IMG/VR virus record: IMGVR_UViG_3300042557_000196
Coordinates: 1 to 54,915 of that record
DNA from: a virus
Taxonomy: Duplodnaviria > Caudoviricetes
Reading direction: 5' to 3' (one strand)
DNA: 54,915 nt
Below, piece by piece: positions 2,976 through 54,915 of this stretch. Under the pieces are notes generated by a model. The model searched no databases. It was not told the DNA's origin and saw only the letters and a program-made list of their open reading frames with translations. The position numbers and the translations under genes are program-made. Numbering within the stretch: the first letter of the stretch is position 1; each line of letters starts with the position of its first letter.

Positions 2976-3514
2976 CGCGCAGAACTCCGTGGCCAATCCG
3001 GTCCTACCGTGCAGACAGGTACAGAGAGTTCGCCTTGGAGCGGGGGCAGCACCTCCTGAACCTGAACGACTACTACACGGCATACGACCGATACGGAGAT
3101 GTCCGTGACGGCAGAGAAGGTGCCGTACCTCGGTACATCGACCTGCCCATGAGCGACTACAAGTGGCTCTACACCAAGGCCGAAAGGCTAGTGCGGAAGG
3201 CGAACACTGCGCTCTGGGGCTTCAAGCTGACCGGCTGGAACCAGCCTCTACGCCTGAACGTCTACCCGACGAACTCCAGCTTCGTCGCCCATAGCGACCA
3301 CTGCGCCCACGACCGCTCCAAGGTCGCATTCGTCATGCCCATCACGATGGCGAAAGACGGAGGCTCTACGTTCCTGCTGGACGTTGACCTACCTCGTGTC
3401 ATGCCGGGGGACGTACTCATCTTCCCGGCGTTCCACCCTCACGGGGTCTACCCGGTCAAGGCAGGCACGCGCGTGAGCCTTGCTGGCTGGGCTACTGGGC
3501 CAAGGTTTACCTAG
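2972..3514 (+). CDS. Second 2OG-Fe(II) oxygenase, paralogue of 353-913
   Basis: HSD, GG, HGVYPVKAGTRVSLAGW; shares the LWGFxL..W.Q.LR and GW..GP.F motifs with the first oxygenase. Confidence 0.8.
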   Translation: MTRRTPWPIRSYRADRYREFALERGQHLLNLNDYYTAYDRYGDVRDGREGAVPRYIDLPMSDYKWLYTKAERLVRKANTALWGFKLTGWNQPLRLNVYPTNSSFVAHSDHCAHDRSKVAFVMPITMAKDGGSTFLLDVDLPRVMPGDVLIFPAFHPHGVYPVKAGTRVSLAGWATGPRFT

Positions 3515-3558
3515 ACCGGCTCCCAATATCGCCACCCGCACGGGTAAAGTTCACACTC

Positions 3559-3831
3559 GTGATCGCCGACAACCAGTTCTTTGAGGTATTCGCGACCGTT
3601 ATTGCGGCGGTTTCTGGCGTCACCGCAATCCTCGTGCTTGGAGAAAAGACGACGGGCATCCTCGGGCGATGGTTCCAGCGTCAGTACCGTGAGGCGTCGC
3701 AGCAGGCTGACGCACTGGTCCGCTACCATCTCGGACCGAACGGCAGCACCATGCCGATGCACGTTCGCATCCAGAACCTTGAGAGCGACGTGACCTACCT
3801 GAAGCAGCTAGCCGACGAGAAGGACGACTGA
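3559..3831 (+). CDS. Small membrane protein upstream of the lysin (possible lysis accessory)
   Basis: One N-terminal hydrophobic helix; translationally coupled to the endolysin. Confidence 0.55.
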   Translation: MIADNQFFEVFATVIAAVSGVTAILVLGEKTTGILGRWFQRQYREASQQADALVRYHLGPNGSTMPMHVRIQNLESDVTYLKQLADEKDD

Positions 3832-4628
3832 TGGGCACCGCCGCTGGAATGCTGGACCTCGCTCGGCAGCAGGTCGGATACGTCGAAGGCCCTCGCAACA
3901 ACCAGACGAAGTACGGCGCTTGGAGTGGCTACAACTTCCAGCCTTGGTGTGGCTCGTTCGTCAACTGGTGCCTTCACTTCAGTGGAACTGGAGGCGAGCC
4001 GAGCGTTGTCTGGACCCCCGGTGGCGCTCAGTCGTACCAGAGGCTCGGTCGTGCGATCCCCCGCAACGGCGAAGTGCGACCCGGAGATGTTGTGTTCTTC
4101 GATTGGGGCGGCTCGCTCCTCGCCAGCAACGTGGATCACGTCGGGATTGTCGAAGCACCTCTCCCTGACGGGCGCATCCAAACCATTGAGGGCAACACCA
4201 GCCCTAGCGACTTCGGCTCCCAGTCGAATGGCGGTGGCTGCTACCGGCGAATCCGCAGCAGAGGCACCATCGCCATGTTCGGGCGTCCCCTCTACGCCCC
4301 CGACCCGGCTTCTCCGTGGACGCCGCCTCCTGCCAACGTGGACTGGGCTGCACTCCGTAGGTTCGTCGCAGCCGCCCTCAGGAACGATCTGCGGGCCGTT
4401 GGGACCGTCAAGCTCGGCTCCCGTGGGAAGGCCGTAGAAACGGTCCAGAAGGCCCTGAACCATGTCTCCGGGGCTGCCTTGCAGGCTGACGGGTCGTTCG
4501 GCCCTCAGACGCACGCAGCGGTCGTGGCATTCCAGAAGTTCTTTCGCCTCGCTGGCGACGGAGTGGTCGGTCCGCAGACCAAGGCGATGCTGGACCTCTG
4601 CCTCGCCAAGATTGCGGCTGGCCAGTAG
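3831..4628 (+). CDS. Endolysin: CHAP amidase plus C-terminal peptidoglycan-binding domain
   Basis: PWCGSFV, HVGIV and IEGNT CHAP motifs; DGSFGPQT..FQ..L..DGVVGPQT peptidoglycan-binding repeat. Confidence 0.9.
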   Translation: MGTAAGMLDLARQQVGYVEGPRNNQTKYGAWSGYNFQPWCGSFVNWCLHFSGTGGEPSVVWTPGGAQSYQRLGRAIPRNGEVRPGDVVFFDWGGSLLASNVDHVGIVEAPLPDGRIQTIEGNTSPSDFGSQSNGGGCYRRIRSRGTIAMFGRPLYAPDPASPWTPPPANVDWAALRRFVAAALRNDLRAVGTVKLGSRGKAVETVQKALNHVSGAALQADGSFGPQTHAAVVAFQKFFRLAGDGVVGPQTKAMLDLCLAKIAAGQ

Positions 4629-4629
4629 C

Positions 4630-5523
4630 TCACACTGAGCGATCCACGACACGCCGCAGCTTGCTGGGCGTCATGGAGTTGGGGTCCTTGACCTTGGCCG
4701 GGTACTTGAGGCGAGCAGTGGTCATCAGTCGCTGACCAATCTCGTCCTCTATCTGGTCGGCCAGCTTGTGGCCAGCGTCGTCGTTGTCAGCGGCGATCAG
4801 CACCACCTTCGGGACGAGAGACATGAGCGCCTTTCGCTGGTCGCTGGACATTGAGGACCCGTAGACCGACACGGCAGGCACTCCAATGTTCCAGAACGCC
4901 AGCGCATCGAAGCACCCCTCTGTCACCGCCACGACCGGCGACCCCATAGGAACCCGGTGATACGAGAAGAGGGTGGACTTGCGGGGGAAGCCCTTGGGGT
5001 AGCGGTACTTGACGCTGGAGTCCATGAAGCGTCGGTTGACCCCGAGCAAGCGACCTCGTGAGTCGTGCAGCGGGATCGTTATGGCCTTGGCAACTCCATC
5101 CCACCCGATCCTGAATCGCTTGGTGGTGATGCGAGTCAGATGCCGGTCGTTCCGCAGGTAGTCCCTGATCCTTGGAGGCAACACTGTGAACTGCTCCAGC
5201 CACTCCTCTGGGTAGACCTTGGGTTGCGCGCTCTGTCTGCCGCCGAGAGTGCGTTCGGTATGGTCCCGAAGCTCACTCAGACTGGGCATCGGCACGCTTC
5301 CCGCACCGACTTGCTTGACCAGCTTGCTGATCCCTCCTGACTCGCCGCAGCCGTAGCAAACGAAGAGTCCCTTGCGGACGTTGAACGCCATAGAGGGTCG
5401 GGAGTCATCGTGGAAGGGGCAGGTGCAGTACAACTCATCACCGCCGTCTATCCGCACGTCCAGATAGGTTTGAGCGAACTTGCGGTACCGCACCTGACCC
5501 CTCCCACTAGCTACCCTGCCCAC
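4630..5523 (-). CDS. dnaG: DNA primase (CHC2 zinc finger plus TOPRIM)
   Basis: CPFHDDSRPS..CYGC zinc finger; EGCFDA and DNDDAG TOPRIM motifs; exact start uncertain. Confidence 0.9.
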   Translation of the reverse strand: MGRVASGRGQVRYRKFAQTYLDVRIDGGDELYCTCPFHDDSRPSMAFNVRKGLFVCYGCGESGGISKLVKQVGAGSVPMPSLSELRDHTERTLGGRQSAQPKVYPEEWLEQFTVLPPRIRDYLRNDRHLTRITTKRFRIGWDGVAKAITIPLHDSRGRLLGVNRRFMDSSVKYRYPKGFPRKSTLFSYHRVPMGSPVVAVTEGCFDALAFWNIGVPAVSVYGSSMSSDQRKALMSLVPKVVLIAADNDDAGHKLADQIEDEIGQRLMTTARLKYPAKVKDPNSMTPSKLRRVVDRSV

Positions 5524-5815
5524 CGGCAGGAAGAGTGTGCTTTCGCACGAACTGGCGACGGTTGGCCCGAGCTTGCATCAGGTCGGCGTCGATTGGACAG
5601 AGCCTTGTGTCAGGCCCGTAGTGCATCAGTGGCTCACCCTCATGCTGCGGGGTGTACCAGCGGCAATCGGCGCTAAGAGTGTCTGCCAAGCAGAGCGGGC
5701 AGGTTTCGTCTGGATGCTCGTCCTCTGTCTGGATCGCCAGTAGGTAGGTTTCGATCCAGCGAGCAGCGTGGTACTGCTCCTCGTCGTCGTAGATGTTCGG
5801 GTCGAATGGCCGCAT
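5507..5815 (-). CDS. Hypothetical protein between helicase and primase
   Basis: Start overlaps the helicase stop codon; contains CxxC. Confidence 0.55.
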   Translation of the reverse strand: MRPFDPNIYDDEEQYHAARWIETYLLAIQTEDEHPDETCPLCLADTLSADCRWYTPQHEGEPLMHYGPDTRLCPIDADLMQARANRRQFVRKHTLPAGGQGS

Positions 5816-7092
5816 CAGTAGTCCTCCTTTGCGGCAATGTCCTGCTCACGGATCTCTTCGGCACGTTCCTTGGTGATCTCTTCATACCCGCCAGTGTTCG
5901 GCGTGAAGTGCGTCCACCAATCGACTCCATCACGACCGTGGCGGTACTTGGCCAAGCGGAGTCGCATAACGTGGTCCGATTCCTTCCGCATCGTGAGGAC
6001 AGCATCAGCGTCGTGGCCGATGGCATCCGAACCAGCCAAGTGCTCAACTCCGGGTGCCTTCCCCCCGACGCCCATGCGGTTGATCTGAGATGCCGCCACA
6101 ATCGGAATCTGATACCGCATGGCGAGGCCCTTGAGTTCTGCCGAGAGCTGGGCCATGTTCTGCCACTGCTCTCTTTGTGCCGACCCGCCTGATCCCATGA
6201 GTCCCAAGTAGTCCACGAACACGACGTTGGGGTTGTTCCTCTCAATCTGGGACGCAATGGTCAGTGGAGTGACCCGCCCAGTGCTGGCGTCGTTGATGAA
6301 CAGAGAGCCATCCAGCTTGTCCTTCATGGACTTGAGGTATGCCCGGTACTTCCGAAGGTCAACACTCCCCTTCTGCATGTCGCTGGCCCGGAACACTTGC
6401 TCCCCGTACTTGGACGAGAGGAACGCATGGACCCGAATGGCGATCTGGAGGCGTGACTGCTCCATTGCGTCGTACTGGACCCGGTACCCGCCGAAGAGGG
6501 CAGCACAAGCCATGCGGATGAGAGTCCACGTCTTTCCCTGACCGAGCCGAGCAGCGACTACCCAGAACTCTCCGGGTTCCATGCCCCCGGTGATCTCGTC
6601 CAGAGTCTCAAACCCCGTCGGGATACCCGGCATCCCATTGTCCTGAGAACGCTTGGCCCGGTTCTGAATGTCTCTGTAGATCGACTGCCAGTCATCGTTC
6701 AGCTCTTTCTCTGAGCCGCTGCCGTCTACCTGAGACTGAACCTTGATGATGTCCCGGTGCATTGACCCGAGAACCTTGGCGGGGTCCAGACCTTCCTGAA
6801 GAGAGTCATTCGCTTCCAGCATGATGGAAACCAGAGACTTCTCAACGTGATGCTTGGAAAGCTCTTCGACTCCGTATTCCACGTCATCGACTGCTAGGAG
6901 AGCTTCACCGAACTTGGACTTGTAGAGAGACTTACTAGGGACCCTTCCATGTCTCCTGTAGTAGTTGTCGATCCATGACCATTCCTGCGAGTAGTCGTGG
7001 AACCAGTCAGTCTCTACGCCTGATGAATGAACATGAGCCATGTTGCCTGTACGCAGCACGGCTGAGATGAGGAATCTTTCCGGGTTGGCCAT
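5815..7092 (-). CDS. dnaB: Replicative DnaB-like helicase
   Basis: GIPTGF, Walker A ARLGQGKT, VDYL, SQINR and K.RHG motifs; AGGA ribosome-binding site. Confidence 0.92.
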   Translation of the reverse strand: MANPERFLISAVLRTGNMAHVHSSGVETDWFHDYSQEWSWIDNYYRRHGRVPSKSLYKSKFGEALLAVDDVEYGVEELSKHHVEKSLVSIMLEANDSLQEGLDPAKVLGSMHRDIIKVQSQVDGSGSEKELNDDWQSIYRDIQNRAKRSQDNGMPGIPTGFETLDEITGGMEPGEFWVVAARLGQGKTWTLIRMACAALFGGYRVQYDAMEQSRLQIAIRVHAFLSSKYGEQVFRASDMQKGSVDLRKYRAYLKSMKDKLDGSLFINDASTGRVTPLTIASQIERNNPNVVFVDYLGLMGSGGSAQREQWQNMAQLSAELKGLAMRYQIPIVAASQINRMGVGGKAPGVEHLAGSDAIGHDADAVLTMRKESDHVMRLRLAKYRHGRDGVDWWTHFTPNTGGYEEITKERAEEIREQDIAAKEDY

Positions 7093-7320: not shown

Positions 7321-8160
7321 CGCCCCACGGGCCGCGCAGCGGTCGCGGTGGGGTGGCCACCCGGCCCAAGACTCCCGGGTGGCCGGGGGTCCCCGGCTAA
7401 AACCTCGGGGACAGCATCCCGGCGGCTGGCCTCGGTGGCTGGTCGTGGAAGGAACCCCGAATCAGACCGGCCTCCGGGTTGGGTGGGTGGATAGCCAAGC
7501 CCCACCTCGGTTCTGATTCAGGGTCCGGGCCTCCCCCATAGGTACCAACCGAAACCGGGAAGGAGTACTTGGCCCACGGGCCATGACTGACCCGGCCTCA
7601 GGTTGGTAGCCACTAACGGTGACCTCTCAGTCAGCGGCATTCCTGTCAACGACCTGATCCTCTACGCCCGTCGGTCGATGCGACCGCCCGGACGGGCCTC
7701 AAGTAGGGCAGTCAGGCAACGGTGGCAGGCATCGTACTCAACGATGAACCCATCCCGGTTGTACGGGGCGAGATCAGTCACCAGCAAGCTGCAACCTCCA
7801 CTGAGCGTGGCGGGCCTTGGAAATGGCCCTCAAGGTTGTGTTCCTACCGTACAGCTTGACCACCTTCACCCCGCCCTCGGACTGCGAGCGACTGGCGGGG
7901 ACTAACCCCACCCTCTCATCGGGCACCGTTAGTTCTCCAAGCGGACACCGCTTGGCATGGTCCTCTTCGGCCTCATCGCATTCGACGTTCATGGAACGGC
8001 ACCAGCGAACTCGCCGCACGACCTTGCACAAGCCCCGCAGCGGAGAATGCGACGGACGTGGCAAACGGCTTGGTCATGCGACGACCTCGCCGGGGTGCGA
8101 ATCCCATAAGCGGTTCGACTGAGAGTTCGGGGCAAACGCCACCCGGTGCTTCGGCACCCT
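7321..8160 (+). ncRNA. Candidate large structured non-coding RNA or structured leader
   Basis: More than 12 local and long-range helices visible (see findings); no convincing CDS; starts just after the promoter. Confidence 0.55.
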
Positions 8161-8193
8161 CAACCAACAACCAACCAACAAGGAGAACAACCA

Positions 8194-8535
8194 ATGGCCA
8201 AGCTCACCAAGTGTCCAGACCACCTCCGGTTCCGTTCGCTGCGGGACTTCGGTGACGCCATCGACAACGCAACCCTCCCCACCGACAACATCCTCCTGAG
8301 CTGGGGAGGTCGGCACTCACTCGTCGTCAAGGTGTCACGGACTCGCGACTGCGGATGGCGGCTGACGTTCATCGACGCGCCAGACTCCATCCGCCCGGAA
8401 CGCTTCGTCGCCTTCATGCAGCGGAGGTTCAAGGGATGGGACGGCGCATCCCTCGTCACCGCCAAGTCCGTGGCAGGCAACCCGAAGGCAACCGGCCTCA
8501 AGCGGTGGACCGAACACACGGTCATCGTGGACTGA
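8194..8535 (+). CDS. Early hypothetical protein
   Basis: ATG 8194 follows a CA-rich leader and AAGGAG. Confidence 0.75.
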   Translation: MAKLTKCPDHLRFRSLRDFGDAIDNATLPTDNILLSWGGRHSLVVKVSRTRDCGWRLTFIDAPDSIRPERFVAFMQRRFKGWDGASLVTAKSVAGNPKATGLKRWTEHTVIVD

Positions 8536-8650
8536 CCATCCTCTACGCCCGCCAGTGCGGGCCAACCTCGTGGGGCCGGGACGCCCCTTCCTCCAACCCC
8601 TTGTCCCGGCCCCACGCAACGCCCAACAACCAACAAGGAGTACAACCAAC

Positions 8651-9070
8651 ATGGCAAAGCTCACCGCAACCACCTACGACGACCTCTACAACGTCCTGAC
8701 CGACGAGAACGTGGAAGAGGCTGTCATCGGCAACAACACCACGGCCTTCCTCAACCAGCGTAGTTGTGAAATCGAAACGGTGAAGGTGGCTCTCCACGGC
8801 AGCGTGATCGCCGTCCTCTACGCCAACGACAAGGTGGCGTTCTCGCTGGCTGGCTACCCCACGGTCACGACTCGTGAGCGGATCAACCAGTTCTTGCCCT
8901 CTGGCTACAAGGTCGTCCAGCGTGGCGGGGTTCAGTTCGTGTCTCTGCCTGACGGCACCTACAAGGAACTCAACCCGCTGCGGACCTACACGATCTACGG
9001 GACTCACCGGGTCAATGGCTACACCGTCCCGGCCCGCATCGCCATGACCACTTCGGTCAACGACCTCTGA
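8651..9070 (+). CDS. Early hypothetical protein
   Basis: ATG 8651 follows a CA-rich leader and AAGGAG. Confidence 0.8.
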   Translation: MAKLTATTYDDLYNVLTDENVEEAVIGNNTTAFLNQRSCEIETVKVALHGSVIAVLYANDKVAFSLAGYPTVTTRERINQFLPSGYKVVQRGGVQFVSLPDGTYKELNPLRTYTIYGTHRVNGYTVPARIAMTTSVNDL

Positions 9071-9114
9071 CCAACCAACCAACCAACCAACCAACTACCA
9101 AGGAGACAACCAAC

Positions 9115-9327
9115 ATGGCAAAGGCAACCGAACTCACCAAGGATCAGGAGATCGAGCGGCTCAAGGAGCAGCTCGCTTGCGTGGAAGGTATCGCAGTCGA
9201 AGCGATCGGAGGCTTGCAGGCTGGCGACGGCTGGACCTACGACCTCGGATGGGACCTTTCTCGCCAACTGGACGACTTGCTCGGACGGGTCCACTTCGGA
9301 CCGGACGATGATGAGAACGACGACTGA
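9115..9327 (+). CDS. Early hypothetical protein
   Basis: (CCAA)n leader and AAGGAG. Confidence 0.75.
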   Translation: MAKATELTKDQEIERLKEQLACVEGIAVEAIGGLQAGDGWTYDLGWDLSRQLDDLLGRVHFGPDDDENDD

Positions 9328-9356
9328 CCAACCAACCAACCAAGGAGTCAACCAAC

Positions 9357-10229
9357 ATGCCCAAGGCAACCCGCAAGGCTGGGACCTCCAGCCCCAAGTC
9401 CACCACCACGACCACCAGCGGCACTCGCAAGCCCGCCGCACGACGCAAGGCAGCATCCTCTACGCCCGCCGAGCAGCACGTTCCCGAATCGACTGAGCCG
9501 AACCCTCGTGCGGCTCACCGTGAGCGGATGGCTGCCAAGGAGGCCATGACCAAGGCGGTCACGGAATCCGCCAAGGTGCCGATGGAGTACAGCGACTTCG
9601 CCAAGCTGGACGACGCCCTCAAGGCGGCGCTCATCACTGGGCTGGACGCCGACTCCAACGGTGGCCAGTCCCGCAACGAAGTGGGCGAAGAGTACTTCGA
9701 CACGTTCATGGACGAGTTGGTCGACGGCCAGATGGACTTGGACATTGACTCGTTCATCGTCGCCTTGCTCGTTCGCCGTCGCAACCTCATCCTCCACGCC
9801 ACTGGCGACCCGGAGGCGCACGAAGAGTACAGCGACTTCAACGGCACGGGCGCTGGCCTCTTCGTCAAGGGCATGTACGAAGCGTTCGGCCTCAGGGCCA
9901 CCAGCGATGCTTGGGAGGCACCCAAGCCTGCCGCCACCAGTGGCAGCAAGGACGGGCCAATCTTCTCCGTCAGGGAAGTCACTGACGGCGAGGCCAACCC
10001 AACCGAACCTGCGTATCGCTCGGTGTACGAGGCCATCAACGATGGCGTTGGCCGTGGCACTCGCATCGCCATCCTGTACTCACGAGGCAACACCAACCGC
10101 CGCAAGTACCACGGCGAGATGGGGACCGTCCTCAACGTCAACCGGACGACCATCACCGCCAAGCTGGACTCCAGCGGCATCAAGGCCCGTGTCTCGCCCC
10201 AGCTTCTCTTCAAGGTGGTGGACGTTTGA
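9357..10229 (+). CDS. Early hypothetical protein with basic N-terminal tail
   Basis: (CCAA)n leader and AAGGAG; strongly biased codon usage. Confidence 0.8.
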   Translation: MPKATRKAGTSSPKSTTTTTSGTRKPAARRKAASSTPAEQHVPESTEPNPRAAHRERMAAKEAMTKAVTESAKVPMEYSDFAKLDDALKAALITGLDADSNGGQSRNEVGEEYFDTFMDELVDGQMDLDIDSFIVALLVRRRNLILHATGDPEAHEEYSDFNGTGAGLFVKGMYEAFGLRATSDAWEAPKPAATSGSKDGPIFSVREVTDGEANPTEPAYRSVYEAINDGVGRGTRIAILYSRGNTNRRKYHGEMGTVLNVNRTTITAKLDSSGIKARVSPQLLFKVVDV

Positions 10230-10285
10230 TGACCACCTCAACCACCCGCCAGTCAACCAACGCAACCAACAACAAGGAGGGCCGT

Positions 10286-11338
10286 ATGGCCACGACCACC
10301 ACCACCTCGCGGAAGGCCACCAAGCGTTCCGCCTCTACGCCCGCTGCTGCGCCGGTCCACCCGCTGGCCAGCCTCATCCCCGATCCCGCCACCTACTTGG
10401 ACGGGTACGTTCACCGCACCATCCGTGGAGTCAACGACTTCGACTACATGGATCAGGTCTGGGAGGGTGACGGCAACGCCGCCTACAACCTCCTGATCGA
10501 AGGCCCGACGGGTGCGGCCAAGACGTCGCTCTGCTACGCATGGGCGGCATCCCGTGGCATCCCCCTCCTGCCCATCAGCGGCACCAAGGCCATCGACATG
10601 GAGCAGCTCGTCGGAGGCCCCGGCATCATCGGCAGCGAACTCAAGTCGTTCGTGCCGGGTGTTCTCGTTCAGGCCATGCAGTACGGCGCACTCGTGCTGC
10701 TGGACGAGAAGAACTACATCCCGCAGAAGGCGATGGGCCGCCTCAACTCGCTGCTGGATCGCCGCAAGTCGCTGGAAGTCAAGGAGGCCGAAGGTTCCGG
10801 CTGGTGCGCTTCCTGCGGCCTCTACAACGACGTGGAAGCGATTGCCAAGGCGCAGGAGGCAGTCATCCTGCACCACCTCGGCAAGCGCAAGGCTGCGGCC
10901 AAGCCGCCAGTGTGCAAGCACTGCGGCGAGGTGTACCAGTCCACCATCGTGACCGCCCTCGCTGGCAAGTTCATGGTCGTGGCGACGCAGAACCCCGGCT
11001 ACGAGGGGGTCTACGACGACAACGAAGCCCAGCGCAACCGCTTCCACGAGGTGGTCACTTTCGACTACGACGTGGAAGTGGAGAAGGACCTCTTGTGGTC
11101 CGACGGACTCATGGCCCTCGCTGCGGCGATCCGGGGACGCTACGGCATGGACTTTGAGACACCCCTCGGCACCAACCGGCTCATGCACTTTGAGGCGGTC
11201 GCACTCAACGAGAAGCTGGGCATCGGTTTCGCCTGTGAGGGCTTGGTCGATTACTTCCAGCCCTCCGAGCGTGCTGCCGTCAAGGAACTGCTGGAGATGC
11301 ACCTCTCGCAGATCGAAGCAGAGCTGGCGGAGGTCTGA
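10286..11338 (+). CDS. MoxR/CbbQ/CobS-like AAA+ ATPase with zinc-ribbon insertion
   Basis: Walker A GPTGAAKT, Walker B LLDE, sensor TQNP and NRF; CASC..CKHC insert; start at ATG 10286 after AAGGAGG. Confidence 0.85.
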   Translation: MATTTTTSRKATKRSASTPAAAPVHPLASLIPDPATYLDGYVHRTIRGVNDFDYMDQVWEGDGNAAYNLLIEGPTGAAKTSLCYAWAASRGIPLLPISGTKAIDMEQLVGGPGIIGSELKSFVPGVLVQAMQYGALVLLDEKNYIPQKAMGRLNSLLDRRKSLEVKEAEGSGWCASCGLYNDVEAIAKAQEAVILHHLGKRKAAAKPPVCKHCGEVYQSTIVTALAGKFMVVATQNPGYEGVYDDNEAQRNRFHEVVTFDYDVEVEKDLLWSDGLMALAAAIRGRYGMDFETPLGTNRLMHFEAVALNEKLGIGFACEGLVDYFQPSERAAVKELLEMHLSQIEAELAEV

Positions 11339-11421
11339 CCGCCACGCTGACCGGGGTATGACTCGCTCTGCCCCGGTCAGCACCCACCCTCTACGCCCAA
11401 CCAACCAACAAGGAGAACAGC

Positions 11422-13515: not shown

Positions 13516-13593
13516 CCGTGCGGTGCCTCGGTAGCTATCCGCTGCCGGGGCACCGCTGTTCTCTACGCCTACCAACCAACCAAAGGAGTGCAA

Positions 13594-14064: not shown

Positions 14065-14244
14065 GCGTCATTCCGCCCGACTCTACGCCTACCAGTGGGT
14101 TGCAGAGACACCCAAGAAGGACCGGACCTACATCTGGCTGATCTCCAAGAACAAGTCGATGTACCAGTCCGACGACCTTGCGAGGCTTGCCATGTCTCGC
14201 TTGTTCTCGTTCATGACCAACCAACTCAGGTGAAAGGACTCTAA

Positions 14245-15183: not shown

Positions 15184-15185
15184 CC

Positions 15186-15700: not shown

Positions 15701-15750
15701 GCACCACGCACCATGTACCGTTTCCGTATCAGCCATGAAGTGGAGGCCAA

Positions 15751-15888: not shown

Positions 15889-15929
15889 CGACAACCAACC
15901 CAACCAACAACAACCAACAGGAGACAACC

Positions 15930-43259: not shown

Positions 43260-43260
43260 C

Positions 43261-46200: not shown

Positions 46201-46302
46201 GTCAACACTGGCGTGGGGGACGGGGTTGAGATCGGCAGGACCGTGGTGGACTACATCACCACCTACGAGCGAGTGAACGGGAAGGGCTGGCGAGCAGCAT
46301 GA
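43261..46302 (+). CDS. Tape measure protein
   Basis: 1013 aa; FAIATPFE and GKVQAEEMNQLAERGIP; periodic Trp/Phe repeats; GIDSPSKV. Confidence 0.95.
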   Translation: MIIADLVAKLRADPSDFIKGTERARDELGRFVTTAKTATGSSGGGGVVGMLGPLGKIGGLAATAFAGFGAASFAKEAIFGFNSQLQNAEMAFTSMMGSGEKAQAFLGDLKQFAIATPFEFTDLVSASQRMTALGFSAEDILPALQKVGDASAAMGGSKDVLDGVIRAMGQIKMKGKVQAEEMNQLAERGIPGWEMLAEKIGVSIPEAMEMSRKGAIDADTAIAALLEGMDKRYGGLMEKQSQSFTGAMSNIKDAAIQTIGGGFKPLFDILTKAGVAFAAFLGSEKVKSFVEAFASGFATVIQFLLDAGGKVIEFINGFGGVGAIMEYVIPIAAALAGYLAMTGAIAGIGKLVGVISNIGKALAGIMTANPILLIVALIIGGLVLAYQKVEWFRDGVNTAFAFLKDTVIPAVVTGFKTFIDTFVSGSNSITQSGFLQFIQEVAIGARDFWDALYAAGQTAVSWVKDTAWPAMQTAFDGIKSAIEAVKGPLEDFGNFWTERWDAIKEATTNVVNVLKPILLVLTAPLWLPIIAGIKMFQWIWENAGDKVMEIVRTLVDLVKNQFQAFVRVIGGVIDVVLGLLTLDWDRIKSGFGNIVGGIIDGFKNLIPSLFRIFQSVLTIVIRAFGSIGGWLLGWLGDVAGWLLEKGAGLVTGMLSGMLGAIGGIRDFFLSLPGTILGLIGDAASWLLEKGKDILTGLWDGIEELAPKVWSWFSDLPGKVIDHIGSVNRTLREKGIQLITGLRDGIVEWVPNIWNWLKSFPGNVLAFIGNLGSTLLNKGIDLVTGLVSGLLNAAPRVWSFISGIPGNVLRFIGSLISTLLDKGSDLMTGLKNGITSAWESVRSWVADIPDKLSKAVGSLSSVLYGAGRNLVDGLKNGISAAWSGVSSFVQEQINKIPSIIRRLMGIDSPSKVMMKIGTQIGDGLFLGLQDGFSKVDGLVGTASASLTPSITGSLMASAGQAVAAGSTPGWAGAGSATYVINVNTGVGDGVEIGRTVVDYITTYERVNGKGWRAA

Positions 46303-46955
46303 CCTACTCAAGCAACTACACGAACCGGACCTCAATCTTCGACACTGGCGACGTGATTGAGGGCGATCACGTCAAGTCGCTGTACGACGAGCTTGGTCAG
46401 TCGCCCGGAAACCTGCTGGACAACCTGTCTCCCTATGTCTCTGGCTGGTGGGTTTCCTCGGCTGGCGGGGCGAATGGGAGCGTTACTGCTACTGCTGCAA
46501 GGATGACCCTCACCCCGCTTGTTGTAGCGCAGTCCAGTGCGTCGATTGACAGAGCAGCAGTCCAGATCATCACCACTGCTGGCTCTGCTGGCTCTGTCAT
46601 CAGGCTTGGCATCTACGGCAGCTCCTACGGAATGCCAAGTGGGGCGCCCATTGCTGATTGGGGCACGGTATCTGGCACCTCTATCGCAGTGCCTGAGCTG
46701 TCAATCACCACGCTCAGCCTGACTCGTGGGCTGTACTGGCTTGCAGCAGCAACTCAGGGCGCACCTGCAACCGAGCCAACGGTTCGATACTCCACGTCAT
46801 CGAACTGGCCACTGGCAATCGGGAACACGGCTACGACAGGAATCTCTGCCGCTACCGGGCTGTACTTGTCTGGCGTTACCGGAGCATTGCCAACCATCAC
46901 TTCGGTCACTGGGTCGATCGCTACTCCAACCTTGGTCGCAGTCAGGTACGTCTGA
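46299..46955 (+). CDS. Minor tail protein
   Basis: ATGA overlap with the tape measure; beta-rich. Confidence 0.65.
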   Translation: MTYSSNYTNRTSIFDTGDVIEGDHVKSLYDELGQSPGNLLDNLSPYVSGWWVSSAGGANGSVTATAARMTLTPLVVAQSSASIDRAAVQIITTAGSAGSVIRLGIYGSSYGMPSGAPIADWGTVSGTSIAVPELSITTLSLTRGLYWLAAATQGAPATEPTVRYSTSSNWPLAIGNTATTGISAATGLYLSGVTGALPTITSVTGSIATPTLVAVRYV

Positions 46956-46956
46956 C

Positions 46957-48630
46957 ATGAGCCGGTACGGTGACGCCTACGGTGGTGATTCCACCTACGG
47001 CTTTGAGTTCAACTCTGCGTGGCCAGCGTTTGAGGTACGAATCGGAACCAGCCTTGGAGCCAACAGCTTCGTGCTAGATGATGTCCAGCGTGGAGTGCTT
47101 GACGGCATCTACACATTGAGCGACTCGCTTGGCTTCGTATGGACCAACATCACCCCAGACATTCGTGACAGCTCTGGCATCAACGTCAGCCGTGGCAGTA
47201 CTCGTAATCAGGGTCCGTACTATCGCTACGAGGCAGGAACTTGCACGTTCACGCTGGAGAACCGGACTGGGCGCTACGACCCGCTCAACCTCTCCGGGCC
47301 GTTTGTGGTCAGCAACGTAACGCTTCTCCGTCCGAGTATGCCGGTGTCAGTCAGGATTGAGTACGACGACGTATGGCACGACCTCTTCACTGGGTACGTC
47401 GAATCGTGGAACGTGCAGTACTCCAACAATGGCAATGACTCAGTAGCCGTGGTTTCATGCGTCGATGCAGCAGGCACTCTGTCGCAGACTGACCCGCTGG
47501 AAGCTCCGGCCCAAGGTAGCGGCGAAAGTGCATCAGCACGCATCACTCGGATTCTGGACAACGTGAAATGGCCAGCAGAGCAGCGGTCTATTGCAGTCGA
47601 TACGTCCTCGTTCCTCCCGACGACTTTGGCCCAGCCAGCGTGGACAGAGATGCTTCTGACTGCTGATTCGGTCAACGGGTATCTCTGGGTGAATGCTTCC
47701 GGCGACGTTGTGTTCCAGACCAAGCAGTCGTTTGAGCGCAACGCCTCGTTCTCGTTCGGCCCGACCGCTGGAGACATCCCCATCGCTGACATTCAGGCAA
47801 GTGGTGATGCGGAGCAGGTCATCAACACGCTGAAGCTGGCTCGTGAAGAGGGCATCCAGCTCGCTGCCTTCAACGAAGAGTCGATTGGCCTGTATGGCCA
47901 GCGTGCGTACCAGAGAAACGACTTGCAGGTGTCCAGCGACACTCTGGTGCAAGAGTCAATCGACTACATCATCAGCCAGTACGCAGACCTTGAGTTTCGC
48001 GTCGAAGGATTCAACGTCTACCCGCAGCCCGAATGGAGTTCTGACCTTTGGAACAAGGTGTTGAACCTAGAGCTGCTCAGGCACGTCAAGGTGCTGTTCT
48101 CTACGCCTGACGGAAGAACGGTTGAGGTAAGCAACTTGATCCGTGGGATCAAGACCTCAATCAAGTCTGGTCAGTGGTCAATGTCGATCTCTACAGCGCA
48201 GGTACCTGACCGGGGTGGCGACTTCACCTTGGATGATCCTGAGCTTGGGCCACTGAGCTACTTCACTGAAGTGGAGCGTGAAGTTCTGCTTTCGTGGTAC
48301 CACGGAATGCTCGGAAGGTTTGGTGAAGCGACGGCTCGTGGCTACCTGCTGAATGGGTACTTGTTTCACGACTCTGTGTATGGTTGGACTAGCTGGAATA
48401 CTTATTGGGGCGCAGTAGAGGCAGGGTGGACTTTCGTAATGCCCATCACTCCGGGCTACGCGTTCGTGTTCGCTGACCAGATTTCTGGAGTAGACGAGAT
48501 AGCCACTCTTCTAAAGATGTGGGCTTGGTTCGTTGACCAGTCGGTCGCTTGGGCGAGCTTGCAGGTCACCCCCGAGAAGCTTGAGGCATGGGATGACTAC
48601 TATGCCTACGAGCGGCTGGCATTGTTCTAA
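46957..48630 (+). CDS. Minor tail/baseplate hub protein
   Basis: Start at ATG 46957; AGTCTFTLEN..GRYDPLN and LFTGYVESW motifs. Confidence 0.75.
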   Translation: MSRYGDAYGGDSTYGFEFNSAWPAFEVRIGTSLGANSFVLDDVQRGVLDGIYTLSDSLGFVWTNITPDIRDSSGINVSRGSTRNQGPYYRYEAGTCTFTLENRTGRYDPLNLSGPFVVSNVTLLRPSMPVSVRIEYDDVWHDLFTGYVESWNVQYSNNGNDSVAVVSCVDAAGTLSQTDPLEAPAQGSGESASARITRILDNVKWPAEQRSIAVDTSSFLPTTLAQPAWTEMLLTADSVNGYLWVNASGDVVFQTKQSFERNASFSFGPTAGDIPIADIQASGDAEQVINTLKLAREEGIQLAAFNEESIGLYGQRAYQRNDLQVSSDTLVQESIDYIISQYADLEFRVEGFNVYPQPEWSSDLWNKVLNLELLRHVKVLFSTPDGRTVEVSNLIRGIKTSIKSGQWSMSISTAQVPDRGGDFTLDDPELGPLSYFTEVEREVLLSWYHGMLGRFGEATARGYLLNGYLFHDSVYGWTSWNTYWGAVEAGWTFVMPITPGYAFVFADQISGVDEIATLLKMWAWFVDQSVAWASLQVTPEKLEAWDDYYAYERLALF

Positions 48631-49285: not shown

Positions 49286-49362
49286 GCGCCTCTAGCTCAA
49301 CTGGTTAGAGCAACTGACTCTTACTCAGTAGGTTCCGGGTTCGAGTCCCGGGGGGCGTACCA
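49286..49362 (+). tRNA. tRNA-Lys(CTT)
   Basis: Cloverleaf: acceptor GCGCCTC/GGGGCGT, D arm GCTC/GAGC, anticodon arm ACTGA-CTCTTAC-TCAGT, T arm CCGGG-TTCGAGT-CCCGG, encoded CCA. Confidence 0.93.
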
Positions 49363-49920
49363 ATGCAAGACATTCAGCAGCTTGGCCACGAGTGTGTCGT
49401 CGGCATCGACCCATCATCGAAGAAACTTGCATGGACCGTGCTCACTAGCGGTTCGTTGTGGTGCGGATCAGCACGGCTCCCGCTCAAGAAGGCCGACCCA
49501 TACACTCCAAACAACGCAGCGGTGGCTATGACTGTCGCAAGGGAGCTTGTTGGCTACGCTGCCGACCTTGCAAGGGAGCCGGTGTTCTTCATCGAAATGC
49601 CAGTGGTCGGACGTGGTGGCGTTTACTCTTCGCTCAGTCAGGCATATGTCAATGGAGTGGTGCAGGCCGTTGTTTCAGCTCAAGGGCATGAGATAGTCCT
49701 TGTCCATCCCAGCAAGTGGAAGAGTCGTGTCGTTGGCAAAGGATCAGCAACTAAGCCCGACGTGGCTGAGTATCTTCGACTTCGATGGCCGGATCTCTAC
49801 GCCGCCGCCAATGGTGACGAGGACATCATCGACTCAGCAGCGATTGCACTTTACGGAGCTGCCGTTGTCTGCGGTGGACCGGAGGTGGATGCGCCACGCA
49901 GAGTGCGAAGGTCTGACTGA
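49363..49920 (+). CDS. ruvC: RuvC-like Holliday-junction resolvase
   Basis: VVGIDPS, FIE, P..WK..V.GKG.ATK and DSAAIA motifs. Confidence 0.85.
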   Translation: MQDIQQLGHECVVGIDPSSKKLAWTVLTSGSLWCGSARLPLKKADPYTPNNAAVAMTVARELVGYAADLAREPVFFIEMPVVGRGGVYSSLSQAYVNGVVQAVVSAQGHEIVLVHPSKWKSRVVGKGSATKPDVAEYLRLRWPDLYAAANGDEDIIDSAAIALYGAAVVCGGPEVDAPRRVRRSD

Positions 49921-50182
49921 CCTCTTCTTCTCGCATGAATGCAAGAGCAACTGCACTGACAAGAAGCCGTGCGACCGTGATCCGAGAGTTGTCGAAGCCA
50001 AGGCACTATGCTCCGAGTGCCAAGTCATCGGCCAGTGCAGGTTCTGGTCTATCGTGACTGCTCTCCCATCTGGAATCGCTGGTGGGCTCACCGTGAAGGA
50101 ACGACGCCGCATCCGCCGTCAGCTCAGGCTTGAGAACTTCCCGTTTGACGACTACAGGAGAGAAGATGGCCAAGAAGGCTGA
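49865..50182 (+). CDS. whiB: WhiB-family transcription factor
   Basis: W...AEC..LFF..AKALCSECQV..QC..GIAGGLT..ERR; start uncertain (49865, 49874 or 49889). Confidence 0.85.
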   Translation: MSAVDRRWMRHAECEGLTDLFFSHECKSNCTDKKPCDRDPRVVEAKALCSECQVIGQCRFWSIVTALPSGIAGGLTVKERRRIRRQLRLENFPFDDYRREDGQEG

Positions 50183-51500
50183 AATCTTGGACAAGATGGT
50201 TGAGGACGTGCCGGTGTCCAAGCTCAAGACTTATCCCGGCAACCCTCGCAAGGGTGACGTGGATGCCATCGCTGAGTCGCTTGAGTACCACGGCCAGTTC
50301 CGCCCCATCATCGTGCAGAAGTCAACGAGCTATGTCCTCGGTGGCAACCACACCTTCATGGCTGCCAAGAAGCTCAAGTGGCCCACCATCAAAGCGGTCT
50401 ACCTTGACGTGGACGACGAGGAAGCCAAGCGGATCGTCCTTGCTGATAACAAGCTGAGTGATTCCGCTGGGTACGACTCGCAGCTCCTTGCGGAGCTTCT
50501 GGCGTCCGTTCCCGACACTGCTGGCACTGGGTACGATCAGCAAGAGCGTGACGCCCTGCTGGCGGTGCTGGAGACAGCTACTGAGGAAGCGTCAATGTCT
50601 GTCTTTGAGTCGAACCTCGACGCCTTGAGCAGCGTTGATGACCCGCTTATGTCGCTCCCTGACCTTGACGAGTACGAAGGCGGCGAAGAAGAGGACACTG
50701 GTAGGCCGTTCCTTGACGCTTCTGATGAACTCAAGGGTCCGTTTCAGCTCTCGGACGACATTGACATTCCTCTAGTCACTGACTGGCAGATGCCTGCTCT
50801 TCGTCAGGACATGATGGTTGAGTACATTCCAGACAACTTGCAGACGTGGGCTGGATCAGCAACTAGAGACATTGACGACGACACGATCTGGTGGCTCTAC
50901 AACTTCGGCGTGGATTCCACCTCAGGTATGCGTGACGTGTCGAAGATGATCCTCTCGTTCTACGCATGGGACGAATACTTTGAGAACTGGTGGTGGGACA
51001 CTGCGAAGTACATGAGCCGTGCGCTCAACAGCGGCGTAAAAATGGCCATCTGCCCGAACTACACGCAGGGAGATATGAGCCGGGTGCTGTCGCTCTGGAA
51101 CCTGTACCGCTCCCGGTACATCGGGCGCTACTTCCAAGAGATCGGCATTCGGGTCATGCCTGACTGCGAGATCCTTGACGACAAGCTCTTCTACCAGCTC
51201 TGTCAGGCCATCACCCCGAAGAACGTGCCGTGGGCCTCCGTTCAGGTTCAGAACATCACTGGGTCAACCCGTGGTGGTGATCGCAAGACGAGTGACGACG
51301 TTGATCGGTGGAAGGCTCAGATGCTTCGCACCTACGAAGCACTCAACAAGCCACACAACCTGATCGTGTACGGCAACTCCAACGGCTTTGAGATGATCGA
51401 AGAGATGAAGCTGCCCGTGGATGAACTGCGGTTCCTTGAGTCACGGGTGTCGAAGTTGTCCGAGCGTGCCAAGGGCCGAGAGCGAAAGACGACGCTGTAG
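50166..51500 (+). CDS. ParB/Srx N-terminal domain fused to a DUF4417-like domain
   Basis: YPGNPRKGDV..IAESL..GQFRPIIV..GNHT..LADN; C-terminal PNYT..WNLYRSRYIGRYFQE.GIRVMP recalled as DUF4417-like. Confidence 0.75.
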   Translation: MAKKAEILDKMVEDVPVSKLKTYPGNPRKGDVDAIAESLEYHGQFRPIIVQKSTSYVLGGNHTFMAAKKLKWPTIKAVYLDVDDEEAKRIVLADNKLSDSAGYDSQLLAELLASVPDTAGTGYDQQERDALLAVLETATEEASMSVFESNLDALSSVDDPLMSLPDLDEYEGGEEEDTGRPFLDASDELKGPFQLSDDIDIPLVTDWQMPALRQDMMVEYIPDNLQTWAGSATRDIDDDTIWWLYNFGVDSTSGMRDVSKMILSFYAWDEYFENWWWDTAKYMSRALNSGVKMAICPNYTQGDMSRVLSLWNLYRSRYIGRYFQEIGIRVMPDCEILDDKLFYQLCQAITPKNVPWASVQVQNITGSTRGGDRKTSDDVDRWKAQMLRTYEALNKPHNLIVYGNSNGFEMIEEMKLPVDELRFLESRVSKLSERAKGRERKTTL

Positions 51501-52225
51501 TGCTGGTCGCATACGAGTACGAAGCTGACCAGCGTTTCAGCGGTGCGAGCCGTGGCCCTGCCCAGCTTGACCAGTGGGCTGGCGGTATTGAGTGGGGGCT
51601 GCGCTTCACCTACCCGTCAACGGCGTCGTCCGAGGAAGCCATGACGGCTTTCGCTGATCGCTTGTCGAAGGTCAGCCGCAAGGAGCGGGTTGTGGTGATC
51701 GGCGGGTGCCATAGCGGCAGCTACTCGGCAGTTCTTGCTGCCCACAGACGTGCTGGCCAGAAGGTTGGCGTTCTCTGCTTCGACGCCCATCTGGATGCAG
51801 AGCCGCTGGGTGACTTCGATGGTGATTCGCTCTACACCAACGCCTCAATGTGGCGCCTGCTTGCCAGCAAGGGAGCCGCAGTGGTCAGGGTTGTTGGCGT
51901 CAGAAGCGCAGCGACCCAGTACGAGAACGACAAGGTTCGGATCAGCAGAACGGTTGGCGAAGCTCTGTCTGACCTTGCAGACATGCCGCTCTATGTCTCC
52001 ATTGACATTGACGCATTCGACACCGCCTCTACGCCTGCAACGTCGTGGCCAGTGCCGGGTGGGTTGGAGCTACAGCCGGTGATCGACGTGGTGTCTGCGC
52101 TCGCTTGCTCCAGCCGGCTTGTTGGCGGCGACATTATGGAGTTCAACCCAGCGGTGGCAGCCGGAACGCACGGCGTCACTGAGCAGAGCATCTGGTCGCT
52201 GGTAAATGCGTTCGATGCTCTTTGA
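51500..52225 (+). CDS. Arginase/agmatinase-family ureohydrolase
   Basis: GGCHS, DAHLD, SIDIDAFD, PGGL and E-FNP metal-binding motifs. Confidence 0.88.
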   Translation: MLVAYEYEADQRFSGASRGPAQLDQWAGGIEWGLRFTYPSTASSEEAMTAFADRLSKVSRKERVVVIGGCHSGSYSAVLAAHRRAGQKVGVLCFDAHLDAEPLGDFDGDSLYTNASMWRLLASKGAAVVRVVGVRSAATQYENDKVRISRTVGEALSDLADMPLYVSIDIDAFDTASTPATSWPVPGGLELQPVIDVVSALACSSRLVGGDIMEFNPAVAAGTHGVTEQSIWSLVNAFDAL

Positions 52226-53816: not shown

Positions 53817-53912
53817 CGTTCAGTAGGCACGCTCTCAATCCACCTAGCCTACTGACGCAGTACCCCCAGAGTACCGGAATCGGCCCCTAGTAGTGGCAGA
53901 CTGAACGGCAGC

Positions 53913-54518
53913 ATGGCACCAGACCCCGCAGGACGCCCCGTAAAGCCCGATCTCGCCATCGACCCTGACGGTGTACCCATCGAGCTCTCCGACCCGTCAG
54001 AAGGCCACCTAGACGATGGTGCCGAAGGGTCCGGGGACGTGGGGAGCGTGATCCTGTCAGACATTCAGGACAAGCTGGCCAACGATGTACCACTAGCCCC
54101 GGCTGAGAAGCAGCGCATGGCAGTGACCCTGCGCCTATCGGGAGCTACCTACAAGCAGATCGCCGGGTCAATCGGGATCAGTGTGAGCTATGCCCACCAG
54201 CTTGTGCAGACAGCCTTGCGGGATACTGCCCATGACAGTGTTGAGGATCTAAGGCGTATGCAGTTCGCCCGGTTGGAACACATGCTCATGATGGTCTGGC
54301 CAAGCGTTGCACAACGGGACCTAGCGAGCATCCACACTGCAATGTCCATCATGCGTGACGAGAATGCACTGATGGGGGTGGACAAGCCAACGACGGACGG
54401 GGACGGACTGATGGATGCAGGCCCCACCATTGTGGCTACTGGGGACAAGGCTGAGTACCTGAAGGCACTGCGTGAAGCTAGGGAGCGTGCCCTAGAACCC
54501 AAGCCTGACACTGACTGA
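53913..54518 (+). CDS. Probable terminase small subunit (HTH)
   Basis: LRLSGATYKQIAGSIGIS HTH; lies upstream of terL across the genome junction. Confidence 0.6.
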   Translation: MAPDPAGRPVKPDLAIDPDGVPIELSDPSEGHLDDGAEGSGDVGSVILSDIQDKLANDVPLAPAEKQRMAVTLRLSGATYKQIAGSIGISVSYAHQLVQTALRDTAHDSVEDLRRMQFARLEHMLMMVWPSVAQRDLASIHTAMSIMRDENALMGVDKPTTDGDGLMDAGPTIVATGDKAEYLKALREARERALEPKPDTD

Positions 54519-54700
54519 CAGTGCAGCGCAGTGCATGGCGGGTGCAGTAGTGCGGCGGGTGCAGTGTCTACCTAGCAGTAGGTACCCCTAGTACCCATAG
54601 GGGAGCAGTGCCACTGTCCCTATCGGTAGTGCATGGCAGTGCAGTGTGCAGTGACAGTCATGCAGTAGAGCAGCATCCATGCAGTGTGCAGTACCTGTAC
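54519..54700 (+). repeat. Cluster of short GCAGT(G/A)/GTGCA repeats
   Basis: More than ten degenerate copies in the non-coding DNA after terS. Confidence 0.6.
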
Positions 54701-54844
54701 CGCTCCATGACCCCCCTGCCCATGCTGCAAATACCAGCCTCGTCCCCACCCAGCATGTGGCTCCCGCACAATGCGCGCGGCTGGAGGCCGGCCCGTGGGG
54801 GCGGTACTTCCCCCTCGGGGCATGGGGGGTGGGGGGTGGTCCTC

Positions 54845-54915
54845 TACGCCCCGGTGAGGTGACGAGGGGTGGACACGGGCGATTGCCAGCGAGGGGGGTG
54901 CCGACGGGGGTGGAG
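54845..54915 (+). repeat. Imperfect terminal direct repeat (right copy)
   Basis: Matches 1-72. Confidence 0.85.

Follow-up and report, generated by a model that had tools for sequence, protein, structure and literature searches.

An exact 9-mer tiled along one strand of a lake-water phage contig, possibly a site of strand-specific nicking

IMG/VR record IMGVR_UViG_3300042557_000196, a 54,915-nt viral contig from a lake-water metagenome that IMG/VR classes as 'linear' and 74% complete, was analysed over its whole length (hereafter the window), and our subject is a 9-mer, CTCTACGCC, that recurs along it. A preliminary description made from the letters alone had listed 33 copies, all in one orientation, and an exact search found every one of them, at exactly those positions: 33 on the + strand and 0 on the - strand. 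Open reading frames (ORFs) were picked by a GC3-based method (coding fraction 0.912). Relative to this set, 7, 2 and 14 copies lie in frames 0, 1 and 2, one is antisense and 9 are intergenic, which bears out the earlier remark that the motif occurs in several reading frames and between genes. Independent sequence comes from Logan assembled contigs of five runs, of which X2-X5 cover small shares of the window. The copies are:

3246-3254, +: frame 1 of a 2OG-Fe(II) oxygenase-like ORF (2630-3514)
4290-4298, +: frame 0 of a CHAP/PG-binding lysin ORF (3831-4628)
7012-7020, +: antisense within the minus-strand DnaB-like gene (5815-7092), where it reads GGC GTA GAG
7660-7668, +: intergenic by our ORF picking
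8541-8549, +: intergenic, immediately past the stop of ORF 8146-8535
8816-8824, +: frame 0 of ORF 8555-9070; an X4 contig covers this copy
9458-9466, +: frame 2 of ORF 9357-10229
10333-10341, +: frame 2 of an AAA_5 ATPase ORF (10226-11338)
11389-11397, +: intergenic; a CAACCAACCAAC leader comes directly after it, then AAGGAG and the start codon at 11422
12345-12353, +: frame 2 of a VWA-domain ORF (11422-13515)
13561-13569, +: intergenic, 4 nt past a 16-pair hairpin (13520-13556) and 19 nt ahead of the start at 13588
14081-14089, +: frame 0 of a small ORF (14054-14233); an X2 contig begins at 14084 (CTC^TACGCC)
14886-14894, +: frame 2 of ORF 14620-15183
16633-16641, +: frame 2 of ORF 16319-16786 (weak Sigma70_r2 match)
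18240-18248, +: intergenic, 30 nt ahead of the start at 18278
19641-19649, +: frame 2 of the DnaE-type polymerase gene (18697-21375)
21046-21054, +: frame 0 of the same DnaE-type polymerase gene (18697-21375)
23375-23383, +: intergenic by our ORF picking, between RecA (22179-23240) and a Cas4-like exonuclease (23500-24276)
25035-25043, +: intergenic
27572-27580, +: frame 1 of a Mu F-like ORF (27001-27864)
30773-30781, +: frame 2 of ORF 30435-31946
31607-31615, +: frame 2 of ORF 30435-31946
33790-33798, +: intergenic, past an exonuclease ORF (32694-33770)
36177-36185, +: frame 2 of ORF 35857-36321
39116-39124, +: intergenic, 25 nt ahead of the start at 39149
41773-41781, +: frame 2 of ORF 41507-42250
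42889-42897, +: frame 0 of ORF 42715-43107
44614-44622, +: frame 0 of a 1013-aa ORF (43261-46302)
46152-46160, +: frame 2 of ORF 43261-46302
48099-48107, +: frame 2 of ORF 46726-48630
49795-49803, +: frame 2 of a WhiB-like ORF (49700-50182)
52027-52035, +: frame 2 of an arginase-family ORF (51500-52225)
54842-54850, +: last copy; the bases from 54845 on match the first bases of the contig, so that this copy would span the putative end-forming cut

The over-representation of this word is real and statistically extreme. In 100 dinucleotide-preserving shuffles it appeared 0.32 times on average and 3 times at most, compared with the 33 observed, in keeping with the earlier estimate that the count lies far above chance. 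The 7-mer core CTACGCC also occurs 33 times on the + strand and 0 times on the - strand, so the core is absent outside the full 9-mer, and one-mismatch variants (8 on +, 2 on -) stay near the chance level, which suggests that recognition is all-or-none. When synonymous codons were shuffled 300 times over our own ORF set, with the 9 intergenic copies kept fixed, the + strand mean was 10.2, i.e. about one coding copy compared with the 24 observed, which supports the earlier view that the word is no codon artefact. The same null yields a mean of 0.07 reverse-complement copies on the - strand, so their absence from the window is uninformative taken alone. Avoidance on that strand is not demonstrated: the reverse 7-mer core occurs 0 times where 1.2 are expected, reverse TACGCC occurs 4 times where 9.1 are expected (p 0.03), and reverse one-mismatch variants occur twice where 5.7 are expected (p 0.06). 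Intergenic copies are enriched about 3-fold (9/33 copies, compared with 8.8% of bases that are non-coding), as expected for any selected word that shares space with coding sequence. The flanks also carry preferences, with C at -4 in 22/33 copies, G or T at -2 in 28/33, C at -1 in 22/33 and T never at +2, which points to a footprint of ~14 bp. Logan contigs from other studies cover copies 8816 (X4), 14081 (X3) and 16633 and 18240 (X2) with 0 differences, so these copies are no assembly artefact.

The copies are also spread more evenly than chance would place them. The gaps average 1612 nt with a coefficient of variation (CV) of 0.49, compared with 0.97 for random placement (0 of 5000 layouts as low), and the largest gap is 3201 nt, compared with a mean largest gap of 6531 nt in the random layouts (again 0 of 5000 as low). 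Copies stand closer together in the first 25 kb, the region of the replication genes (mean 1210 nt), than in the structural part beyond (mean 2129 nt, CV 0.33), such that the left 25 kb is only ~1.8 times denser. The preliminary description had put the spacing at about 0.3-1.2 kb in the early region and about 1-3 kb elsewhere; its early range was slightly too narrow, given gaps there of 2722, 1747, 1607, 1401, 1405, 2329 and 1660 nt. Spacing is kept within long genes, with two internal copies each in the DnaE gene, ORF 43261-46302 (1013 aa) and ORF 30435-31946, and for 8 of 32 copies the next + strand start is more than 900 nt away downstream, e.g. for copies in the DnaE and presumed tape-measure genes, so that placement tracks distance rather than gene organisation. 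Five copies do sit 19-40 nt upstream of a start codon, and one of these directly follows a terminator-like hairpin. The copy at 7012 keeps its + orientation within a minus-strand gene, 5815-7092, which matches Pfam DnaB_C (5.8e-33), and no reverse-complement copy occurs in any minus-strand gene. The claim that the motif is independent of transcription therefore holds, on thin evidence: a single copy in the only multi-gene minus-strand block, which makes for a small test. The longest gap in the early region, from 4290 to 7012, coincides with this block, as expected given that the motif would read TAG in one of its three antisense frames. Together, the codon-shuffle null and the sub-random spacing back the earlier view of a directional signal tiled along the chromosome.

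The two ends of the contig involve the motif as well. The features concerned are:

1-6, +: first bases of the contig, TACGCC, which are the last 6 nt of CTCTACGCC
1-71, +: left member of an imperfect terminal direct repeat, identical to 54845-54899 at 53 of the first 55 positions, with indels in G runs after that
886-2298, +: terminase large subunit (TerL)-like gene (phrog_2, 1e-09)
53913-54518, +: helix-turn-helix (HTH)/sigma-70 region 4-like ORF, read as the terminase small subunit (TerS) from its position and fold class
54528-54693 (~165 nt), +: array of 11 GCAGT[A/G] repeats directly 3' of the TerS-like ORF, with a G-rich tract behind it; a probable recognition region of the terminase
54845-54915, +: right copy of the imperfect terminal direct repeat, ~71 nt following the CTC of copy 54842

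Because the contig starts with TACGCC, its left end implies a cut at CTC^TACGCC, and the probability that an arbitrary contig start falls at this exact phase of a copy is 33/54915 = 6e-4. The junction of the contig ends sits between the TerS-like gene with its repeat array and TerL, which is where a packaging cut is expected. A second end falls at the same phase: an X2 Logan contig from a different study (2016) starts at 14084, i.e. at CTC^TACGCC of copy 14081, where the 24 X2-X4 pieces listed, with their 48 ends, would give ~0.04 such starts by chance. A packaging signal comes closest among the functions that the preliminary description had offered for the motif, because the contig begins inside a copy beside the terminase genes.

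The remaining gene content comes from a Pfam scan of 50 ORFs (~20 others, mostly structural, were outside it) and a PHROG scan of 20. The left gene order is 2OG-Fe(II) oxygenase, TerL, a second oxygenase and the CHAP lysin, and the minus-strand block carries a DnaG-type primase and DnaB. Early genes include the AAA_5 ATPase, the VWA protein, the DnaE-type polymerase, RecA (1.2e-58) and the Cas4-like exonuclease, and a second exonuclease is also encoded. The structural genes specify a Mu-like portal, the Mu F-like protein, a protease and a major capsid protein, and ORF 43261-46302 is presumed to be the tape measure by its length and position. To the right lie genes for a WhiB-like protein, a ParB_N-DUF4417 fusion, an arginase-family protein, a JAB protein and the HTH/sigma-70 region 4-like ORF. 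Neither an integrase, a repressor, parA nor an RNA polymerase was found among the ORFs scanned. A single tRNA-Lys (anticodon CTT, 49286-49362) lies directly upstream of the WhiB-like gene, and within ORF 16866-17831, which has a C-terminal Rho_N/SAP-like domain, an acidic, GAC/GAG-rich coding repeat (17450-17700) draws many unrelated metagenome contigs (summed depth 93-390, compared with ~15 elsewhere) and many spurious joints.

A second + strand-biased word, CAACCAAC, occurs 25 times on one strand and once on the other, with 17 runs within 8161-15918 and further runs at 40864 and 44780. In the early region, leaders of the form (CAAC CAAC)n-AAGGAG-N-CAACCAAC-ATG abut start codons, and they look like a common 5' leader or translation-initiation module of the early genes; their positions imply that some of the picked ORF starts, e.g. 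8555, are too far upstream. The GC-rich 16-pair hairpin at 13520-13556 follows the stop of the VWA gene and is succeeded by the copy at 13561 and then by a CAACCAACC leader.

The ParB_N-DUF4417 fusion (50130-51500 in the window) has 380 hits in environmental phages and has been listed as frequent in phages and of unknown function (10.1101/2025.10.10.680097). A fold model (pLDDT 83.7) matches ParB/Noc over the N-terminal domain in Foldseek, with weak aldolase/TIM-like matches for the rest, and a profile search of the PDB returned ParB-type chains only. We considered it as a protein linked to the motif, and nothing ties the fusion to CTCTACGCC.

The phage has few near relatives in the collections searched. 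Megablast of 20 kb of the window against 50,697 phage records gave no match, and TerL had one weak match in that collection. In scans of IMG/VR, a set that may not include records very near the window, no capsid protein exceeded 71% amino-acid identity, and the terminal sequence, searched as an exact 36-mer, had 0 matches. Scanning with TerL yielded 5 loci (42-64%), and in metagenome contigs the best DnaE identity was 53%. The nearest cultured relatives of the capsid protein are Arthrobacter and Microbacterium phages (47-56% identity), followed by the Pseudomonas RSP/KPP23 and Roseobacter RDJL phages (45-46%). The WhiB-like gene probably indicates an actinobacterial host. A RecA scan of genome contigs for the host returned nothing, and a DnaE profile search listed 80 loci at 27-33% identity, mostly from Actinomycetota and a few from other phyla, the best (33%) being an Acidobacteria bin. 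CTCTACGCC itself is absent or at chance level in 80 IMG/VR capsid loci, in five whole relatives (G001-G005) and in the cultured relatives Ottawa, Kovu, Salgado, ValentiniPuff and RDJL Phi 1. G002 has counterparts of the window's TerL-like, DnaE-, DnaB- and primase-like genes (46-63% identity; ~31% for the primase).

The more distant relative G001 (an IMG/VR record of 47,362 nt, L073, with loci L089-L091), which shares only structural genes and a ParB_N domain with the window, has a one-strand 9-mer of its own: ATGCGAYTG occurs 33 times on one strand and 0 times on the other, and GATGCGA 74 and 6 times. These copies are dispersed but uneven (CV 1.16, with an 8.3-kb gap from 12648 to 20910), and one lies inside a minus-strand methyltransferase gene (Pfam-confirmed). 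The word persists in L071 and L079 (90-91% identity to G001), where the motif columns are 96-97% identical, compared with 90-91% elsewhere (3/99 and 2/54 columns changed, one of them to the permitted T/C alternative), which offers modest evidence for purifying selection. G001 also encodes a C5 DNA methylase, a type IB topoisomerase-like protein (PF01028, 1.6e-19), an amidoligase with GATase, and WhiB. No gene was found that tracks the motif (tblastn, 1e-5): the genes common to the window (G000) and G001 are the structural ones and ParB_N, which also occur in the motif-less G004 and G005.

Other candidate words among the relatives did not amount to tiling along one strand. GCCAGCATCA in G002 and CGCCACCGCC in G005 are local tandem coding repeats, and the words of L064, L027/L028, L031, L009, L032, L019 and L036 have few copies and resemble in-frame peptide or codon bias. 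GATTTCAGCA in L108 forms a local 2-kb cluster; at 179-2188 of that locus, nine + strand TTTCAGC words, six of them GATTTCAGCA, precede a TerL relative (60% identity). Arthrobacter phage Ottawa (W01, OQ938580.1) carries a different and far sparser one-strand repeat, the 12-mer AACCCCCGTTAG, 8 times on one strand and 0 times on the other in 63.5 kb.

An enriched 9-mer confined to one strand and found in any frame, a word specific to the lineage, and two sequence ends at one phase of it lead us to the reading that we favour, at somewhat less than an even chance: that CTCTACGCC is a site-specific + strand nick or cleavage site, one copy of which forms the chromosome end. A sequence-specific enzyme would recognise the 9-mer and cut the + strand alone between CTC and TACGCC, with the weaker flank preferences (C-N-K-C upstream and 'not T' at +2) extending the cut site. 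The copy ~150 nt downstream of the repeat array of the TerS-like gene would form the left end and the short direct terminal repeat. In the T7-type model, ends are formed by a nick followed by strand-displacement copying, and the ends of this phage would arise in the same way. The other 32 copies would leave + strand interruptions every ~1.2-2.1 kb in replicating or packaged DNA, like those of phages T5, phiKMV, tf and Rembedalsseter, which might relieve torsion during packaging or ejection or serve as entry points for RecA-dependent replication. Going further, the phage may encode its own 'grid', in which a cut signal every ~1.2-2 kb is selected for even coverage, the same enzyme makes the end and segments the + strand, and the resulting 3' ends seed replication or act as swivels. 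We consider this extension doubtful. It would tie terminus formation, replication restart and genome architecture to one 9-mer. Such a link is undescribed for the nicked phages known so far, in which nicks are few and clustered and bear no relation to the termini.

Several points weigh against a nick site. From sequence data that consist of assembled contigs only, we infer the physical break, the strand that is broken, the enzyme and its purpose. No nicking nuclease (HNH, GIY-YIG, HUH or similar) turned up in the Pfam scan of 50 ORFs or the PHROG scan of 20. Both end coincidences were spotted post hoc, with 32 of 1404 contig pieces listed and with assembled contigs rather than raw reads as the data, and we treat them as hints only. 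A 12,545-nt X1 Logan contig, of which 12,466 nt align, apparently runs 79 nt past position 1 of the window. Such an overrun fits a short terminal repeat collapsed at k=31 (the repeat would be kept twice only where the assembler's word length exceeds it), and it fits a circular or permuted molecule, with local variants, equally well. The terminal repeat is imperfect, and the record is classed as 'linear' at 74% completeness. G002 has no tiled or dispersed one-strand word. In G001, that record's own motif is missing from an 8-kb stretch that holds a TerS-like ORF (Sf6_terminase, E 0.0014, below the cut-off) and a 538-aa ORF, which we take as TerL although it has no Pfam match. Known nicked phages have 4-14 unevenly placed sites, compared with 33 even ones here; the sites of the tf-like Pseudomonas phages cluster toward one end, and tf ends at another sequence, whereas here the chromosome end apparently lies inside a copy (PMC3517423).

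Foremost among the alternatives, though unlikely in our view, is a Chi- or KOPS-like polar signal for a recombination nuclease/helicase or a translocase, of the host or of the phage (RecA, Cas4-like or SbcD-like), whose single orientation would halt degradation, or orient movement, from an end exposed in rolling-circle replication or packaging. Strict polarity, frame independence and an even tiling that leaves no motif-free stretch above 3.2 kb suit such a signal, the phage has RecA, the Cas4-like exonuclease and a second exonuclease, and a motif that differs by lineage is expected if different hosts or enzymes read it. Against this, in 5 + 201 Actinomycetota genomes, lake bins of Ilumatobacteraceae and Microthrixaceae among them (8 of the 201 are flagged as unpublished, and the result is the same without them), CTCTACGCC reaches at most ~100 copies per strand per 3-5 Mb and at most ~3 times the reversed-sequence control. 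In the genomes searched, one copy thus falls in at least ~16 kb with both strands counted together, compared with 1.7 kb on one strand of the phage; the word is at least 10-fold sparser there and not one-stranded, which disfavours the Chi/KOPS option that had been raised at the outset. Known Chi sites are 5-8 nt long, compared with an exact 9-mer with flank preferences, and such a signal leaves unaccounted for the two assembled sequences that begin at CTC^TACGCC. A slightly poorer candidate is a binding site for a phage protein, be it a stoperator-like repressor or elongation block, a sigma-like promoter element or a loading site for the ParB_N-DUF4417 fusion. The 33 asymmetric copies resemble the 20-30 asymmetric stoperators of Cluster A mycobacteriophages (PMC6550527), intergenic copies are ~3-fold enriched, five copies sit 19-40 nt before start codons, the flank preferences reach -5 and +2, and the phage has WhiB-like and sigma-like ORFs besides the ParB_N fusion. 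Yet 24 of the 33 copies lie within genes and 8 are more than 900 nt from the next + strand start; the core is the same in all 33, and graded variants do not occur; in the minus-strand block the one copy points against its gene, and no copy is reverse-complemented. A stoperator, as the preliminary description suggested, loses further ground because no repressor or integrase (nor parA) was found in the Pfam and PHROG scans, and loading of the ParB fusion does so because ParB_N genes occur in the motif-less G004 and G005 and are absent from G002, such that the fusion does not track the motif among relatives.

Slightly less probable again is a lagging-strand priming or restart signal, in which the + strand would be the lagging template of a left-to-right fork and the primase with DnaB, or another initiator, would begin an Okazaki fragment at every copy. 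The 1.2-2.1 kb spacing and the CV of 0.49 suit the scale and regular coverage of Okazaki fragments, the phage encodes a DnaG-like primase, DnaB and DnaE, and an unsealed fragment junction opposite the motif could yield the end at 14084. DnaG-type primases recognise trinucleotides, and we know of no precedent among them for an exact 9-nt site. G002 has primase, DnaB and DnaE genes yet no tiled motif, whereas G001 has a one-strand 9-mer and none of those replication genes was detected there; GC skew varies along the window genome, and the end copy beside the terminase genes is left unaccounted for. We allow a smaller chance still that the explanation lies outside those listed here. A strand-specific target of base modification or exchange, for instance by the ParB_N-DUF4417 protein, seems very improbable. 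A bulky base could stall polymerases and mimic DNA ends, the C-terminal domain of the fusion models as an alpha/beta barrel with the weak aldolase/TIM-like matches mentioned above, and one DUF4417 Atlas cluster is auto-named 'queuine tRNA-ribosyltransferase'. DpdB, which is ParB-like, and the TGT-like DpdA together place 7-deazaguanines in DNA, and by analogy the fusion may be a DpdB/DpdA-like base-exchange enzyme. Modification sites need be neither one-stranded nor evenly tiled, no deazaguanine synthesis genes were seen among the scanned ORFs, and the fusion is common in environmental phages, with ParB_N also present in motif-less relatives.

If CTCTACGCC is a nick site, nicking would reach a distant phage group, with sites under selection for even spacing; to our knowledge, all nicked cases described so far are phages of Proteobacteria, with few and clustered sites. 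The tie between a nick site and chromosome-end formation would offer a testable idea of the enzyme's purpose, and scans of metagenomic phage contigs for strand-biased k-mers could find such systems, with G001 as a second lineage. Should it turn out to be something else, a 9-mer that is exact, evenly tiled and confined to one strand would call for another explanation, and the other known systems fit it poorly. Chi and KOPS are short, oriented, over-represented words that are frame-independent, read by DNA-tracking enzymes and properties of host chromosomes; CTCTACGCC is likewise oriented, over-represented and frame-independent, but no such density occurs in the 206 Actinomycetota genomes. T7-type promoters differ in that no RNA polymerase is found in the scanned ORFs and 8 of 32 copies are more than 900 nt from the next start. 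The stoperators of Cluster A mycobacteriophages, 20-30 asymmetric sites of 13-14 bp, are similar in belonging to actinophages, as the window probably does, in being spread over ~50 kb mostly in one orientation and in having a lineage-specific consensus (PMC6550527, PMC9283540). Stoperators are variable, follow transcription on both arms and need the immunity repressor of a temperate phage, whereas the window has a 9-bp core that is identical in 33/33 copies, with partial flank preferences. Among the papers on nicks and stoperators that the literature searches turned up, there is no evenly tiled one-strand motif and no such phage group, and the string CTCTACGCC has no phage context among the literature matches listed.

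Closer parallels come from genomes with programmed interruptions. The pleolipovirus HRPV-3 has strand-polar interruptions linked to GCCCA (27 motif sites, 13 of 19 tested being discontinuous), although this is a 5-mer whose polarity switches with transcription, in the circular genome of an archaeal non-tailed virus (PMC3384331). T5 and the phiKMV-like phages have one-strand interruptions at a consensus, with no assigned function, in genomes with direct terminal repeats (PMC3517423, 10.1101/619015), and the window would share such interruptions if it is indeed nicked; T5 has 5 major and many minor nicks at a loose consensus and the phiKMV-like phages have 4, compared with a single exact 9-mer present 33 times. 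Phage nicks have been known for ~50 years, and their function is still unknown (PMC11780129). The nick-linked one-strand 9-mers of the tf-like Pseudomonas phages appear to be the closest published precedent (PMC3517423, PMC11780129), although the window phage, with its WhiB-like gene, Mu-like portal and Mu F-like proteins and long presumed tape measure, is unrelated to the nicked phage groups. The 14 nicks of phage tf lie without exception in TACT/RTGMC and in the top strand; one strand holds 17 of its 17 near-consensus sites, and the motif varies among related phages (PMC3517423). In Rembedalsseter and 60 relatives, WACTRTGAC has a net count of ~9 per genome on one strand, compared with 0.7 expected, 88% of copies lie within coding sequences, and one-strand nanopore coverage falls to zero at the motif (PMC11780129). 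The window has 33 copies, compared with the 9-14 of these phages, and its tiling (CV 0.49) has been weighed above. Otherwise the LUZ24/tf-like phages and the window have these features in common: an enriched 9-nt motif on one strand, mostly coding, in any frame and sometimes antisense; near-variants that go unused, and variant motifs in related lineages; a cut inside the motif, after base 4 in tf and, as the contig ends suggest, after base 3 in the window. The short direct terminal repeats of tf (186 bp) may have a counterpart in the imperfect repeat of ~71 nt here.

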